Source of the DNA: Callorhinchus milii
Lineage: Eukaryota
Reading direction: 5' to 3'
NCBI RefSeq assembly: GCF_018977255.1
Contig: NW_024704742.1
Span: 82,028,001-82,092,000 of the forward strand
DNA length: 64,000 nucleotides
A program made the translations under genes and the position numbers. The notes under the pieces were generated by a model, which was not told the DNA's origin, did no database searches, and saw only the letters and a program-made list of their open reading frames with translations. Positions 23,004 through 36,256 of the stretch are shown one piece after another. The stretch's first letter is position 1. Each line of letters begins with the position of its first letter.

Positions 23004-23552
23004 TAGAATTAGTACTATTTTCTTGTAAGAAGGTCCTGGGTTCTTCATCACTGGATACATGTCTGACCTCATGTGGCCACCTTCAGCAGTTAACGTTAAT
23101 CTTATTTTTCTTTTATGCAGTGCAGAAAGGGGAGTATCATGTGATTCAACTACACAAGTCTGTTAAAGGCAGAGGTGACATTGTGATGCTTGGTTTCCTT
23201 GTTGCATTTATAGTTTGCATATGGTGTATGACTTATAACCTCATTCAAAGAATGACTACAGTATTTAAAATTTACCTTTTCAATGTTGGCACTGGAGAAA
23301 ATTAATATGCAGTGATTGTTCTGAGGAGAATGCAATGTTAGTCGGGTGACTTGATGGCCATTGTTCCATTTGCATTTGGATATTGTGTACGTTCAAGCAG
23401 AAAAAACTGAACTTTTGCTCAAATGAATTATTTGCCTATAAGCCTACCATTTGTGATGTTGATAACCCTGTAAAACAGCTTTGGGGGGATGGGGGGAAAT
23501 GCAGTAAAACGCTGATGTGTTAAATTATGTTGCAAGCATTAATCAGTTTTAC

Positions 23553-23706
23553 CTTCATGGGAGGTGGTTGCTGGCGGAATGTGACGGTTTGTCGAGCGTC
23601 CTGCTTCCTGCCCACGTGAAGGTGATGGGCAGCTGCTGCAAGAGACTCGGGGATGGGTGGTTCCCGAGTTTTTATCTGCCACTCTGCTTTTTGCTTCTCA
23701 AAGTAA
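23553..23706 (-). pseudogene. ZC4H2: ZC4H2-like exon 4 (154 nt, frame open)
   Basis: Acceptor ttttggtctttag|, donor AAG|gtaaaa; encodes [10 protein letters not shown]...[12 protein letters not shown]...[10 protein letters not shown], visible within ORF 23520..23846. Confidence 0.95.
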
Positions 23707-24017
23707 CTAAAGACCAAAACCAATGAAAATGTTATTTCCATCTTATAAGCCTCCGTTAGCATCCTAAAGGAGCATGGTAGAGTATTTTTATTACCCAATA
23801 TAAATTCCCTATTAGGGACTGATTCATGACTTTGGTTTCTGGCCATTTATGAAATATGTGAGAGAAAATTAGAATTACACTTACTTTTTTAGATTTGATT
23901 TTGAACTAAAGCACATTTAAGGTAAATTAAATTGACTTAACAATACTTTTGGCACCATATGTGTAACCTTACACAGATAATATTACACCCCATCATACTA
24001 CTCAATCAAATACTTAC

Positions 24018-24190
24018 TCAAGGGAAATTTTTTCTTCTTCCTCACACAAGTCAGGTAACCTTTGCAATCCCAGAGTCATCTATAGGGCCTCCACATGCTC
24101 TTTAAGTGGCTCGTATTCATCATGTAGGCATTTTGTAGATTGAAGCAATTTATTTAAATCATTTTCTGTCTAATTTATTCTATTTTCCAT
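24018..24190 (-). pseudogene. ZC4H2: ZC4H2-like exon 3 (173 nt), in-frame TAG at 24172-24170 and 24082-24080
   Basis: Acceptor ttttttgtag|ATG, donor GA|gtaagt; encodes ENDLNKLL...[17 protein letters not shown]. Confidence 0.93.
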
Positions 24191-24677
24191 CTACAAAAAA
24201 GGGGATAATCCTACTATCATTATTCCCATTAGCCCTTCATTAGACCATAGATCCATAGAAATTTACAGCACAGAAGACAGCCCTTCAGCCTACTGTTTCT
24301 GTTCCCATTTACTTGCCCCAGATTTTACCATTTTATATTCATTGAACTAAGAAAAGAAACATTAAAAAGTTGCTAGCAAGTTTGCAAGTCTCTTCTCGAG
24401 TCAAGGACAGAAGATTGTCAAGGACACTCTTCACCTATCTGGGGGGAACCTAGTGCTAAGCAGCCACCCATGAAAGGATCAACGGCTCGAGCCTCATTGT
24501 TTTATTTTTTTCTAAAAAAAATCAGAAATCAATTTAAAGCCTCAAATTGAGGCAAACAAATCATTGGTTATATAACCTTAATAAGATTAAACCATGAATA
24601 TACGTATTATTTAATTCATTATTCTTACTACATATCAGCAAATAAATAAGTGATAAGATTTTAGTGTTTGAACATAC

Positions 24678-24849
24678 CACATTGGTATCAACATGGATGA
24701 GTCAAAGTTCTGCCACAAGTGCCTTCTTTTCTTGCAGTAAAAGATCCATTTCATGTTTATAATTTTTTAGGTGCCTTTCTTCTGATACTAATACATCAAA
24801 TTCAGATTTCAAGCAGGTCTTTATATTTTCCATTTGCACTGTCTTAGAT
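24678..24849 (-). pseudogene. ZC4H2: ZC4H2-like exon 2 (172 nt), in-frame TGA at 24704-24702
   Basis: Acceptor aaattgcag|, donor GTG|gtatgt; encodes [17 protein letters not shown]; the stop sits at the Arg of EELRLIH (consistent with CGA>TGA). Confidence 0.93.
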
Positions 24850-25209
24850 CTGCAATTTCATAGAAGCACAAATATAATATATGAATTCTTAAAAAAAGCT
24901 TTCAGACATTTCTTTTTTTCCTGATGGCTGAATGTATCTGCTGCTCAATAAATTTTCTTCACTGATTGAGTGAGAAAATCAGGATTCCAGTATCATTCAA
25001 TAGGGTTTAAATCACCAAATAGGGGGAAAATATACAAAATACAGGCAATTGTGTGATTCAGCAACCCATTTGTTACTTTAAAGACAATGGATCTTTGTCA
25101 TTTCATTCCCATCACTTATTATTACTATTCAATCCACTCAACCAACAGTACCATAAATAAAGCTACTTATAAAATTAAGCAACCAATGTACAGCACATTC
25201 CATGCAGAG

Positions 25210-31589: not shown

Positions 31590-33913
31590 AGTTCACAATA
31601 AAAATCCTGCAAAGGGCTTTGAGACATCTCAATGACATAATAAGGCTGTATTAAAAGCAAGGATTATTATCATAGTAGGCTTTCCAGGCCCCGACATTGC
31701 AAAATGACTTGTGTCTATTTTTTAATATCTCGACCTTGTTGACTGGTATAAAGCAATTCTGTTGGAATTTGCTTATGTTCACTGACTTGGTTTCACAAAA
31801 GACTTTCATGGTACTTCGGTACAACTCACCATCTTGTCTCACTTCCTCGTGAACAAATATTACACTGAGGTAGTGCCTTGTGTTTTGAACCACAATGTGT
31901 GCTGCTCTATTGTCAAACTAAGCTTCTAATTACCTCAGATCCTACCTCTCTAAATGCATCTATGACAACCTATCTCCCCCCCACCTCCCTTGCTTGGTGA
32001 TCAACCCCATCCCTGTACAGTGTTTCATGATGTCCTTTGTGAAGGATGTTATATAAATGAAAGTTGTTGTTGTTTTGGTCTTATTCCCAAAATAGTTTTT
32101 TATAAATAGTTTCACAAAAGACTTTCATTGTACTGCAGTGACAGCTCACCTTCTTGTTTCTTGTGTGAAACTCTTCCACTGCAAACTGAACCCATCTGTT
32201 CATCATGGAATATTAGCTTTTGCTATCCAAACCCAAGTTATAATAATAATTCTTGCATTTGATATAGCATCTTATCTTGTCATTGAGACGTCCCAAGGTG
32301 CTTCACAATATTTGCTGTGAAGTTTGGTGAATGTATAGAATGTGGCAGCCAACAGACATTGAAGACACAAAGTTAGTGACCAATTTTATTTGAGGCATTG
32401 TTAATACAACCTTTTGATTGAGTTAAAATCAGAAAACTCAGCACAGACCATGACTTGAACCTGTGTCCTCTCAGTGACTTAGTGCTACACTGGGCAGTGC
32501 CTTTTGACCACTGGTCCATTGAGGGATATGTATGTTAAGAGCTAGGCTTTTGCTGTCTTCCTTGTGAACAGATGATCGGAGAGAAGATAAGAAGCTGCAT
32601 GCAAAATAAATCTTTTTATAAATAGCTTTGGATTCTACATCTGTTTAAATACTGCCCTTCTCTGCAGGGATACCACTTAGTGCTGTTGCACTCTCAGCTT
32701 GAACATTGTGATCACGCAAGTTGATTGCAGACATCGCGTAAGAAACACTTTTTAATCTTATACAGCGTGAATAATACATTACAAAAGCACTAGGCAATCA
32801 TCACCATCTTGCATTTGAAGAAAATTTGTTAATGTATTCTTTACTAACAAATAAAGTACAACATAATTCTGTGTCTATTGTGTAGGGAGAATTTAATCAC
32901 TTTCTTTTGATCCCATATAGACATTTTTCTTTGGCAGTAGGAGTCTCTGGATTCAGAATTTACATCCTTATTTATGCTTATTACAAATTATGGATTATAC
33001 AGTGAAATACTGATTCATATCAAATGCATATCACTTCTGTCTTCTTAAAAAAAATCAGGAGTACAAACTGATCAGTTCATTAAGGGTTGAAAGTATTAAA
33101 ATCTATAGTCAATATTTAAAAGAGCTGCTTGCTGCTAAAACAAATATATTACACTGAGGCAATGCTGTGCAATGCAATGTTTTGAACTACAATAAGTGCT
33201 GCTCTATTGCAAAACCAAGCTTCCAACTGCCTCTCTGTACGCACCTATGACAACCTCTCTCCTTCCCCCTTCTTTTCTCGCTGTCCAAGTCCATCCCTGT
33301 TAAGCTTTCCGAGACGTCCTATGTGAAGGACACTATAGAAATGAAAGCTGTTGTTATTGCCATATTCCAGCTTTCTTCATGTGAGTTGTGACTTTCTTTT
33401 TTGTTCTTTCTGAGGTTGCAGCCCAAAATCAGACTCAGTATATGGGGAAAAATTCCACCTGGATCTATATTTACTGTATTAACTGAGCATTTTACAGCAT
33501 CCACGAAAAATATACAGTAACTACACTTAATATATCCTGTGAATCACTTTGAGATGTCTCGACAACATGTTAAGGCATTATGTCAAATACAAAGATTATT
33601 ATTATTATTATATCTGTATATCTGTAGTCAGGCCTGTTTATCCTTGTCTGCACCTCTATGACTGTATGACAGGCAGTGCCGTGAAAACGTAGAGCTAGAA
33701 CACGACAGCCATTTTGAAGCACTGCTGCTGATTTGACTATTGTGGGTTTGAGGCTTGTTTGAACTACGAAATGCTCTAGGACAGAATATTTAATGCTGGG
33801 TCTATTTCCATGTACTGTTAAAGAGCCTGTAATGCTATTTGTGACTGTGGAAGTGTTATTCATGACAGAGAAGATTATGCAATGGAAGCGTAATAAATAG
33901 GTGTCCTTTTCAC

Positions 33914-34013
33914 CAGTCAACTCACTTTACAGTATATTCTGTGAAGCGCTTTGGGACGTCCTCCCGACGTGAAAAGCGCTATATCAAATGCAAGGATTAT
34001 TATTATTATTATT
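33914..34013 (+). mobile_element. Young 5'-truncated SINE tail
   Basis: Near-consensus gggacgtcctcccgacgtgaaaagcgctatatcaaatgcaagg(att)n. Confidence 0.9.
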
Positions 34014-34682
34014 GTTAACACCTTTTATTATCGATGAATATTGACATTCTCTTTATTCGAAGTGTTCAGTGGACACGTTTCAATAATATGATCCATGGGA
34101 TTTTGCCCTGATTGGCAACTGGGAGTACGCCATAGAAATTTTTTTCTTAAGATCTTGCAGCCGAACCAAGAAGCTGTGCAAGTAACAAGCATTTATAACT
34201 ATAGAAAGCTTCTGCATGTGAAGCTGCAATTAAATTGGACATCTTGTTAATATAGATATATATTTTTTCCCTGTCCAATGGAACACATGCACAATTAGAT
34301 ATTGAGTATCTGCAGTGTAAGTCTAGGCTGGTTAAGAAATATTACAAATGCAAGGTCAAGCCTTCAAACAACTTTGCTGTCCGTGGCACCCCGATCAGTT
34401 AAATGGCATGTTTTTTGACTATTGTGTGCACAGGGAGAAGGTTAGCACTAGGAGATTACTTTTTGTTTAAACATTCCACTGAAAACTTTAGCTCACTAAA
34501 GCTATGGATGTTATGTAGTAAAAATGAAATGTGAGATAATCATATCAAAATTATAATGAAAATATTGTTGCAGTTCATAATGGTGCATTTAGAACATATA
34601 TACATAATGTTCTTGGAATTTTGAGCTAAGTGAATCTTAGTTGATTTGTGCTGCAGAAACATGTCTTTTTCAATGTTTATAA

Positions 34683-35011
34683 ATGCAGTCAGCCATATTT
34701 GCAACTACCTCTCATGGTGTCTCATGACAGCCTGATCCACAAAAAAAACAGAGAAAACCTATGTGGCCTTAATTGGAGAAGCTATAAAGAAGAGTGTGTG
34801 CAATAAATTGCTAGTGAATGGAATTTATCAGTACATTGAAACAAATTACCCACATATCCGGGAGGAACCTGGCATGCACAGAAATTGCATCTGCCAGTAG
34901 TTAAGTGTGGCCTCACGCTTTCACAGAACACCTAAGAAATACCAAAATAAATGGTGTCATGTTTGGATGTTCAATTCATTGTTCGCCTCCATTTCCTCAA
35001 AAGCACTTTAA
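34683..35011 (+). pseudogene. Degenerate forkhead-box (winged-helix) pseudogene, highly divergent, subfamily uncertain
   Basis: The frame from 34745 reads KTEKTYVALIGEAIKKSVCNKLLVNGIYQYIETNYPHIREEPGMHRNCICQ*LSVASRFHRTPKKYQNKWCHVWMFNS. It aligns without gaps through helices 1-3 to the Fox consensus KPPxSYIALIxxAI..S..KKLxLxxIYQYI...YPYFR.....WRNSIRHNLS...F....W. Stop TAG at 34898-34900; frameshift at the A-run 34741-34748; upstream TGA. Confidence 0.8.
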
Positions 35012-35300
35012 CAGATGTCTGACAAGAATTTATTTCTTGCATTTCTGAAGAAATTGCTGTAAGTATTGCTGAGGACAACTGTGATCTGTGTGCGTGTCAA
35101 CAGCGTTTCAGCAAGGAAAGAGAAGCTCTCCTTTCCATATGGACTCCGACAGCTTTTTATGTTTCTGAAAGGTTCCAGCACAAGCTAAGTCATTAAATGA
35201 AAGTGCTGAAGCAAACAGCATATGGGATTCGAATACATACAAAGCATGGAACAATTCTAAAGATTTTGATCGGAATCACAGGAGATTTGTATAGTTTTTA

Positions 35301-36256
35301 TGTGGTACGACCCTGAGGTAAGATAGTACAGAGGTAATGGATAAATCAAAGGGTTAATTTATTAATCAGCAAGATGGTTATTAAACAGTTACAAGTTTCA
35401 TGCTTATAACTGCAGTAGATAATTCAGGGCAGGTTGATCTCGACCTTATCTGGGACACCAACGCATCAATAATCCTTTGGCTAATTGTTTAGACATAAAC
35501 CCACATGGCCCACAGGATCCAGTATCTCACAGTGTCCAACTGTGTCTAACAATGTCCCACTGTGCCCAACCTCTTAACAGTTGTTTAATTTCTTTACACC
35601 CCAAAGTTCGGACACGTGATGACGAAATAAGAAGGTGCGGCCAGAGGTTCTTCCACCCAACCAAAGTTCACAGTTTGATTGTCCAATCATATTCCTGAAT
35701 TGATCCATCCAATCATCTTTCCACACATAGGAGGTCCCAAGGCTGTGAAGATTTTAATCTCTGGAATTTGGGAGTTCTTCTGGAAGCCTCTGATACCAAG
35801 TGTGGAATGTTCAATTTGATAGTTAATTGTCCTTCCTTGGCACCTTCACGTTGTAAAATCCTTTCAAGATCTCGTCCAAGCAGACTGCAAGTCACCAAGA
35901 GTTTCATTAATCAAGCCAATGTCAGGTTAACTCAAAGCCACACATTTCTGATCTTGTTGAATGTTGGCTTTTGGGGTCTTAGCTGATCGTAGAATCTTTC
36001 TTATCAACACAATCTACATTTCGTTCACTTGAGATGGATTGTTAGAGACACCATCTCCCAAACAAAGAATGGAATAACACCTATTCATCAAATCTTCATC
36101 AAGCATGTCACAGAGCCCCAAAACACAGATCTCACTCCATGTGGTTCGAATTCTCTCTCTCACATTCCTTAACATCCATCAAGATTGTTCCAGTTCTTTA
36201 ACATACAGTTTGGGGTGTCAAACAATAATTTTAACAATAATTTTAAACCTCTTACA
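35301..36256 (-). mobile_element. Probable solo LTR (ERV/LTR-retrotransposon type)
   Basis: On the minus strand it begins TGTAAGAGG and ends GGTCGTACCACA (TG...CA), with AATAAA about 60 nt from the 3' end and a TATA-like TTATAA upstream; non-coding; no clear target-site duplication. Confidence 0.6.

Follow-up and report, generated by a model that had tools for sequence, protein, structure and literature searches.

The 64,000-nucleotide stretch of the Callorhinchus milii genome analyzed here, called the window in the following, lies on contig C1 at about 82.0-82.1 Mb (C1, C2, etc. are numbered contigs of this assembly, L-numbers are loci of this genome, and P-numbers are protein sequences that were compared). 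On its forward strand, at 34736-35011, the window contains a forkhead domain within a dead gene, which encodes nothing now and is most likely an old remnant of a lineage-specific family of Fox genes that has died out. The relic is composed of the following parts:

34650..35220, forward strand: whole relic unit, delimited by homology to sister copies elsewhere in the genome
34661..34735, forward strand: N-terminal remnant, with an ATG at 34661-34663 (MSFSMFIN...), closed by TGA at 34733-34735
34741..34748, forward strand: run of eight A (A8) with a frame slip relative to the upstream frame 34645-34806
34745..34978, forward strand: relic of the forkhead (winged-helix) domain (PF00250, 51.9 bits, E 8.2e-14)
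34898..34900, forward strand: in-frame TAG within the recognition helix (NCICQ*LS)
35009..35011, forward strand: TAA at which the frame of the domain ends; beyond it, the conserved C-terminal part lies in a different frame
35023..35196, forward strand: C-terminal remnant (QEFISCISEEIAVSIAEDN...), one frame off the domain frame

The original prediction was that a forkhead domain is hidden here by stop codons, and this was confirmed. The translation of 34736-34900, STKKTEKTYVALIGEAIKKSVCNKLLVNGIYQYIETNYPHIREEPGMHRNCICQ, ends at the TAG, and past the TAG the same frame continues with LSVASRFHRTPKKYQNKWCHVWMF... up to the TAA. The read-through of 34736-35011, 91 residues with an X in place of the TAG (P0001), was compared with the Pfam Forkhead profile and scored nearly twice the curated cut-off (51.9 bits versus 27). 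The match spans residues 4-81 of P0001 and profile positions 2-81 of 88, therefore the spacing of helices 1 to 3 has been kept, as had been claimed. When all six frames of the 991 Mb assembly were searched for forkhead domains, this place was recovered with an E-value of 1.2e-10 and flagged "1 TAG". Therefore, the forkhead domain is real and no chance match. A phmmer search of the PDB chains with P0001 (E<=1) retrieved 42 distinct sequences, which with few exceptions are forkhead domains; FOXG1 (7cby, 3.4e-8) and FOXL2 (1.6e-6) are the best matches. There is no other forkhead match within the window. The description as highly divergent also holds, as P0001 matches 17 of the 30 intact or exon-level Fox loci of this genome, at 28-38% identity, and has 93 matches in protein libraries, at 24-42% identity. 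The relic is therefore no recent copy of any of these Fox loci, and no close match to an ordinary Fox gene was found among them (best identity 38%).

That the gene is dead, likewise proposed before, follows from its lesions. The ATG at 34661 shares the frame of the domain, yet it meets the TGA at 34733-34735; a frame slip near the A8 run, the TAG in the recognition helix, and a second slip ahead of the C-terminal part and the TAA come in addition, so that no uninterrupted frame exists. A contig of another public sequencing run (X1), possibly from the same animal, spans 34024-35365 and differs from the window at a single base, 35089. Both the TAG and the A-run recur in it, therefore neither of them is an assembly slip. 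In the recognition helix, which reads MHRNCICQ*LS in the window, the consensus W..N.IRHNLS of the 30 Fox domains of this genome is not retained, and a His occupies the near-invariant Fox Trp position. The C-terminal remnant has no match to a Pfam family, and the unit contains no Pfam domain besides the forkhead domain.

The window copy is not alone. In this assembly 71 forkhead matches were found, which include about 30 canonical Fox genes in vertebrate-type clusters. A search of the genome with P0001 (E<=1e-3) yielded 15 matches, i.e., the query itself, seven intact Fox genes, and seven broken stretches. When 18 loci, comprising the broken matches and weak, stop-containing Pfam matches, were compared by tblastn, 11 matched at E<1e-4. 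These 11 loci and the window copy share LIGEAI, KLLV, IETNYP, ICQQLS, CFHRIP, and LYHFWM, all of which are absent from the 30 Fox domains of this genome. Genome searches with other single relic proteins added one extra copy, L049. Of 19 loci, 13 scored higher with a hidden Markov model (HMM) of the family than with the canonical Fox HMM, and the remaining six are ordinary Fox exons or other relics; outside its training set the family HMM won at two of eight loci (L044, L049). An exact back-translated IETNYP pattern was unfit for counting copies (eight matches versus nine in a reversed control). Taken together, the family has at least 14 members including the window copy, and this number is a lower bound, because candidates below the best ones are left unscored in the genome search. 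The members have the following positions:

C1: 53.48, 59.83, 82.06 (the window copy), and 122.02 Mb
C2: 21.78, 24.37, 41.90, 62.14, 81.88, and 83.94 Mb
C4: 14.97, 15.40, 28.01, and 50.94 Mb

These are three of the four largest contigs; C3 (99 Mb) and C5 have no relic, and neither have the small chromosomes. The original prediction had suggested a check of copy number and intact relatives, and this check revealed at least 13 dispersed sister relics that had been missed (L031-L037, L042, L044, L045, and L047-L049) and no intact member of the family in this assembly. Every copy that was inspected has stops or frame slips (L044 was outside that reading), and the seven sister copies scanned with Pfam Forkhead reached 13.5-22.5 bits, all under the cut-off of 27. 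The window copy is the least decayed and by far the best preserved.

The unit common to the copies is small. Collinear blastn similarity between oriented copies (65-75% identity) is limited to about -100 to +360 around 34736, homology with L034 at the DNA and tblastx level spans 34635-35220, and in a MAFFT alignment of 13 copies column conservation exceeds the background only at about 34653-35070. The shared unit thus has a length of about 0.45-0.6 kb and starts at most about 25 bp upstream of the ATG. At roughly >=75% identity the region 34300-35286 has no other match in the genome, and one further DNA match has 74% identity. The remaining pieces that copies have in common are frequent short interspersed nuclear elements (SINEs) at varying offsets. 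The former end of the pseudogene at 35300 has to be withdrawn, because it coincides with an unrelated high-copy repeat that begins at about 35287, and the family homology already stops at about 35095-35220.

The consensus of the 13 copies starts with ATG and continues with MSFTIFTNLATFASISHGACGGLSHKKPEKTYVDLIGEAIRKSVSKKLLVNEIYEYIETNYPHFREKPGNWKNCICQQLSKSSCFHRIP...KLYHFWM and then ...ISEEIAASAAEE. Its frame is open from the ATG through the domain, with the Trp restored, a Gln at the TAG column, and the recognition helix NWKNCI(C/R)QQLS. The consensus allows the lesions of the window copy to be sorted. The TAG column holds Gln in L042, L033, L036, and L037 as well as in the consensus, therefore the TAG of the window represents a single C-to-T change of a CAG codon. 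The Trp is kept in L034, L037, L047, and the consensus, hence it is ancestral and the change to His is private to the window copy. The His itself had been recognized earlier, but its meaning is altered by this result. At the column of the canonical Arg the copies have C/L/C/W/stop/R/H/S/L, as expected from the decay of a CGN codon, and therefore the ancestor probably had Arg; the loss of this base-contacting residue from the window copy would then probably be due to CpG decay. On this basis the ancestral helix was probably about W.NCIRQQLS, with Gln-Gln instead of His-Asn, i.e., already unusual and yet much less damaged than that of the window copy.

For the A-run, it had been proposed that one restored base yields KKPEK and joins the domain to the upstream frame. 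An ancestral KKPEK is backed by HKEPEK and YEKPEM in sister copies and by a CCA in the family consensus, which reads AAGAAGCCAGAG in this region. However, with one base added to the run at 34741-34748 the two frames stay unjoined; it takes A7 instead of A8, or two more bases, to bring the upstream frame 34645-34806 (...SHDSLIHKK) into line with that of the domain (TEKTYVALI). The N-terminus has counterparts in MSFTIFADL (L032), ISFSVFTNL (L034), and ISFSAF*NL (L037). The C-terminal remnant is tied to L035 by blastn (window 34992-35092) and to L034 by tblastx (35019-35220), and its counterparts are in the frame of the domain in L035 (FLCFTKEIAARAAEED) and L036 (ITAEMVAEDA), while L034 has ISDENALSAAEDG. 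The ancestral gene can be pictured as a single exon of about 180 codons, which would have encoded the forkhead domain between a short N-terminus (MSF[ST]IF.NL) and a C-terminal tail that was short and acidic.

The divergence at each codon position was determined for the 13 copies against a leave-one-out consensus, using one-sided Fisher tests. The window copy differs at 47 of 213 sites, and the differences are spread evenly over codon positions 1, 2, and 3 (15/71, 17/71, and 15/71), therefore it has drifted neutrally. The same even spread is seen in five more copies. In L048 (p 0.0007), L033 (0.0014), L049 (0.0085), and L042 (0.010) differences are overrepresented at third positions. This excess is a hint that part of the family divergence might have arisen while members were functional, and the family as a whole is old.

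The genome also contains two loci of FoxQ2 type, which the relics have to be compared with. In a 2025 paper it is reported that vertebrates ancestrally had FoxQ2I and FoxQ2III, the latter beside FoxP genes, and that cartilaginous fishes kept FoxQ2III and lost FoxQ2I; the FoxQ2III-FoxP linkage is described there for amphioxus, lamprey, and skate (PMC12828049). The first locus, L023 at C12:4,230,528 (4.23 Mb), is an intact single-exon FoxQ2III-type gene with an open reading frame (ORF) of 310 codons. Over 83% of its length it matches a UniRef entry of C. milii with 100% identity, and its shark and skate orthologs are 61-65% identical. FoxP-like split forkhead exons are present about 260 kb away (C12:4,492,291-4,496,028), thus the gene fits FoxQ2III (PMC12828049).

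The second locus was found via PIAS, as the bony-vertebrate FOXQ2 sits between PIAS4 and ZBTB7A according to PMC8494292. Four PIAS-type zf-MIZ matches exist, at C21:4.005 Mb (4,005,124), C1:137.28 Mb, C22:1.41 Mb, and on C1178, while the PINIT family search yielded one exon only, on C22. On C21 a SAP-domain exon (4,018,444-4,018,956) lies on the same strand as the zf-MIZ exon, and a FoxQ2I-type gene (4,022,715-4,023,900) is arranged head-to-head with PIAS, about 4 kb from the SAP exon and 17 kb from the zf-MIZ exon. Its first exon, on the strand opposite to the PIAS exons, reads ...KPAQSYIALISMSIVSSKEKKLLVCDIYQWIRNTYPYFKNK and is followed by GT; its second exon, about 0.75 kb on and preceded by AG, reads DKNGRNRIRHNFSLNKCF, then, after a frame slip, GRSDNGKGHFWAIHPANYEDF. 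An intron of about 0.75 kb thus interrupts the forkhead domain behind ...YPYFKNK, and the second exon carries a Trp-to-Gly change, a Ser-to-Arg change, and the frame slip ahead of GRSDNGKGHFW. The locus looks like a FoxQ2I ortholog in conserved position, which is apparently broken and a fairly fresh pseudogene, and it may be the relic of the reported FoxQ2I loss of cartilaginous fishes. ZBTB7A was not found, as no BTB domain is present in ORFs >=70 residues at C21:4.012-4.042 Mb. The C21 exon (EKKLLVCDIYQWIRNTYPYFKNK ... GKGHFWAIHP) resembles the relic family (KKLLV.EIYEYIETNYPHFREK ... LYHFWM), and its KKLLV and HFW are the same features by which the family differs from other Fox classes. Its identity to the relics is 31-48%, without any match at the DNA level, therefore the C21 gene is not their recent parent.

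Taking these results together, we regard it as likely that 34650-35220 is what remains, without function, of a small forkhead gene with one exon from a lineage-specific Fox family, which spread to at least 14 places and then became extinct. The family would have spread over three large chromosomes of a cartilaginous-fish genome before it died out wholly. The window copy would have drifted neutrally, gaining frame slips and the TGA in its N-terminal part, losing the invariant Trp and the base-contacting Arg, and gaining the CAG-to-TAG stop in the recognition helix and a further frame slip ahead of the tail. We infer that some family members were once functional. For the mode of spread we lean toward retroposition rather than DNA duplication, because the unit is short and starts just upstream of the ATG, the copies are dispersed, and an intron is missing. 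A bolder version, namely that the 14 relics represent a vertebrate Fox subfamily without a living member, which probably derived from FoxQ2I and had a changed recognition helix (Gln-Gln for His-Asn), multiplied in chimaeras or their cartilaginous-fish ancestors while selection acted on it for a time, and is still visible only because the genome decays unusually slowly, is possible, albeit rather doubtful. Two of the alternatives named by the original prediction, an unnamed fast-evolving Fox lineage and a retrocopy, are still alive.

Several observations weigh against this reading. All 14 copies are on C1, C2, and C4, which comprise 346 of the 991 Mb (35%), and random retroposition predicts otherwise. 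By length, the chance that all 14 fall on these contigs is 0.349^14, or about 4e-7, a post hoc value that ignores detection bias. The restriction may stem from an old tandem array scattered by rearrangement, from local spread, or from better survival of old DNA. Only two of the 13 copies (L048, L033) retain their third-position excess after Bonferroni correction, and the GC content of the consensus, which is 0.41 at third positions versus 0.34 and 0.31 at the others, could add to that excess. No working member was found in the assembled genome, and unassembled sequence could still hold one. With regard to the Fox class, the free maximum likelihood (ML) tree leaves the relics outside the FoxQ2 clade (17 rows, support 100/100), which takes in the C12 gene, its shark and skate orthologs, and sauropsid and invertebrate sequences. 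The seven best matches of the family HMM are all of FoxG type (54-60 bits), with the FoxQ2-type P0082 and P0020 at 55-56 bits. The totals of the class HMMs are close (Q2I 272, G 257, Q2III 231), and a broad mixed HMM is highest (375). Last, neither the class HMMs nor the approximately unbiased (AU) test has enough power for an assignment to a class, and in the AU test even a FoxA/B placement is not rejected.

The Fox phylogeny that had been suggested as a check hence gives a divided answer. The relics form a long branch of their own in the ML domain trees. Forcing them into the FoxQ2 clade was the cheapest of the placements tried, with a cost of 0.83 log-likelihood units (lnL; AU p 0.475), compared to 7.35 lnL for FoxG (p-AU 0.296) and 6.63 lnL for FoxA/B (p 0.314), none of which was rejected. 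The earlier statement that the domain looks most like FoxQ2 is therefore neither borne out nor refuted: several residues fit the FoxQ2I type, and that placement costs least, but in the free tree the relics stay outside the clade. Because the C21 exon shares the KKLLV/HFW signature and the FoxQ2 placement costs the least likelihood, we lean, with the chances about evenly balanced, toward a descent of the family from a FoxQ2I-type lineage, with FoxG as the main alternative.

The family might instead consist of processed pseudogenes that were dead on arrival, i.e., 14 retrocopies that all stem from the mRNA of a single Fox gene expressed in the germline; none of them would ever have been functional, and the parent would have been lost or become unrecognizable. 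The dispersal of the copies and the start of a unit of about 0.5 kb at most about 25 bp from the ATG fit this scenario. The copies are, moreover, uninterrupted where the C21 FoxQ2I-type gene has its intron, and six copies including the window copy have diverged equally at all codon positions. However, the missing intron is telling only if the parent was of FoxQ2I type, and most Fox genes have no introns in the domain. Furthermore, four to five copies show a third-position excess, the copies are limited to three chromosomes, and no parent was found, the C21 exon being too dissimilar. We consider this explanation unlikely. A poly(A) tail or target-site duplications are unlikely to have survived at 65-75% identity between the copies.

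That a mobile element captured and multiplied the domain, another of the earlier suggestions, is very improbable. It would account for many dispersed copies of a short unit, and the setting is repeat-rich: one SINE-like element occupies 33914-34010, and another begins at 35287. But apart from common SINEs the copies have no collinear homology beyond the unit of about 0.5 kb within ±1.4 kb, and no transposase, integrase, or reverse transcriptase domain adjoins the unit among the 137 window ORFs >=75 residues. The copy number is low, and the unit starts at the ATG and reads as one gene.

Even less probable is a unitary pseudogene, in which the window would hold the original, syntenic Fox gene (FoxQ2) that died in place. 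FoxQ2-like signature residues and a shortened wing would suit such a gene, and the FoxQ2I loss reported for cartilaginous fishes in PMC12828049 makes a relic expected somewhere. The relic is, however, not the ancestral, syntenic FoxQ2 locus, because the FoxQ2-type loci are elsewhere: the intact FoxQ2III-type gene with FoxP-like exons about 260 kb off is on C12, and a separate FoxQ2I-type gene is on C21, about 4 kb from the PIAS SAP exon, as in the PIAS4-FOXQ2-ZBTB7A order given in PMC8494292. The relic has no FoxP neighbor, the forkhead matches closest to it on C1 being those at C1:87.23 and C1:69.22 Mb, at distances of about 5 and 13 Mb, and PIAS4/ZBTB7A adjacency is lacking as well, as no PIAS-like zf-MIZ match is nearer to C1:82.06 Mb than that at C1:137.28 Mb. 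Thirteen sister relics also speak against it.

A live, very divergent gene or exon, the stop of which is read through, spliced out, or edited, is hardly credible: a GT...AG pair (34896-34925) could bracket the TAG, and a run guessed to be RNA has two low-depth contigs there, but the residues past the TAG align to the forkhead profile and hence no intron is present, 30 nt would be implausibly short for a vertebrate intron, the ATG frame is shut by the TGA and two further frame slips would have to be overcome, key DNA-contact residues are gone, divergence is equal at the three codon positions, and no joint was seen in any sequencing run compared. The contigs of that run (X5), 34911-35144 and 35193-35415, have a depth of about 3 and no joints, and are neutral on transcription; of two further guessed-RNA runs, X8 covers only 34691-34771 at a depth of about 3.6, and X9 has nothing before 35258.

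The surroundings of the relic are gene-poor. The 137 ORFs yielded only two Pfam matches, both weak: RVT_1 at 56.3 kb and, at 23.5 kb, zf-C4H2. The latter belongs to ZC4H2-like exons (23446-25199, reverse strand) that are a partial duplicate of the complete ZC4H2 gene on C15 (14,032,158-14,033,907), with 90.7% identity over 1776 bp. The duplicate has three exons with introns and three in-frame stops and is missing the zinc-finger exon, features that identify it as an unprocessed fragment pseudogene. Synteny through these exons was ruled out, because they are a partial duplicate; within 60 kb of the complete C15 gene there is no Fox relic. SINE-like repeats are abundant in the window, e.g., at 33914-34010, 33507-33610, 32240-32340, and 35287-35400, and at many other loci. 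One SINE-like type with a (TAT)n-like tail occurs every 1-2 kb, including positions near several relic copies, and the high-copy repeat from about 35287 has genomic copies that are 82-94% identical.

Outside this genome no close live relative was found in the protein libraries searched. HMMER against 1.84 billion protein representatives gave 93 matches at E<=1e-3; the two below 1e-10 are multi-domain proteins, the scores of which sum over their domains. Three predicted proteins of other organisms (P0002, P0005, P0010) have three to eight tandem divergent forkhead domains per chain, some with degenerate recognition helices; these are either genuine proteins with several forkhead domains or gene models in which a tandem array of Fox genes has been fused. 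A word-indexed search of longer proteins with P0001 gave 47 candidates, none of which scored, and the same type of search with the family alignment retrieved a single fungal Fox protein (E 4.9e-4) and nothing closer. A description of the family was not found in the literature on Callorhinchus or cartilaginous-fish Fox genes and pseudogenes; the supplementary tables of PMC12828049 may list cartilaginous-fish sequences.

Fox genes are core developmental regulators, and the vertebrate repertoire is regarded as well charted. If true, the expansion and later disappearance of a whole Fox subfamily would mean that vertebrate Fox history has one more, lost branch. The relics would also bear on which FoxQ2 paralogs early vertebrates had and how these were lost, a question that has recently been taken up again (PMC12828049), and together with the broken C21 FoxQ2I-type gene they would show how cartilaginous fishes lost FoxQ2I. 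For annotation they call for caution, as even very old pseudogenes can still exceed domain cut-offs where a genome evolves slowly, and might then be taken for divergent genes. The locus itself most likely has no relevance to the biology of the living animal.

Comparison with known Fox classes reveals both shared and deviating features. FoxQ2I-type genes share with it the hydrophobic KKLLV at a site where most Fox classes have Thr (..LTL), and HFW ahead of the wing end. The wing has 13 residues in the family, 12 in FoxQ2, and usually 14, and LIG.AI of the family is also present in some invertebrate FoxQ2-type domains (P0003, P0020, P0082). The core of the EH-I-like motif, which we take to be FSIxxIL, is similar to MSF[ST]IF.[ND]L of the family and differs at one defined position when compared by eye. 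The N-terminal F-S-I-x-x-x-L thus recalls the N-terminal EH-I-like motif that PMC4077281 assigns to one FoxQ2 group. In contrast, identity to the FoxQ2I type is only about 40-45% in the domain, the recognition helix is W.NCI(R)QQLS in the family versus WRNSIRHNLS, and a single FoxQ2I-type gene with a PIAS neighbor stands opposite 14 dispersed, broken copies on other chromosomes, without a PIAS neighbor and without an intron in the domain. The FoxQ2III-type L023 has YIEENFPYYR, which resembles YIETNYPHFR of the family, and both wings are shortened. However, L023 is intact, it has GRCEDGKGNYW and RLNL, and its class HMM is the lowest of the three against the relics.

FoxG1 and the invertebrate FoxG (slp) are similar to the relic in other respects. 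FOXG1 (7cby) is the best PDB match and L004 and L002 are the best matches in its own genome, the FoxG-type matches P0019 and P0017 of the family HMM read IMTNYPYYREKKQGW, and PKKYQ-NK of the window resembles PRHYDDPGK of FoxG. But the family lacks the Thr of LTLNGIY, the 14-residue wing, and GNYWML of FoxG. L002 (C9:11.60 Mb) and L004 (C3:62.73 Mb) have near-identical FoxG1-type domains and L021 (C673) is a more divergent FoxG-like gene; with three FoxG-type loci the genome has more FoxG copies than tetrapods. A parallel for the history proposed here is found in lineage-specific expansions and losses of fast-evolving Fox classes, such as the foxQ2 expansions of Spiralia, where, according to PMC9539403, a Fox class has multiplied in one lineage and diverged fast, as the relic family would have done. 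In contrast to these spiralian genes, the family is all dead and known only from relics, and it is found in a vertebrate.

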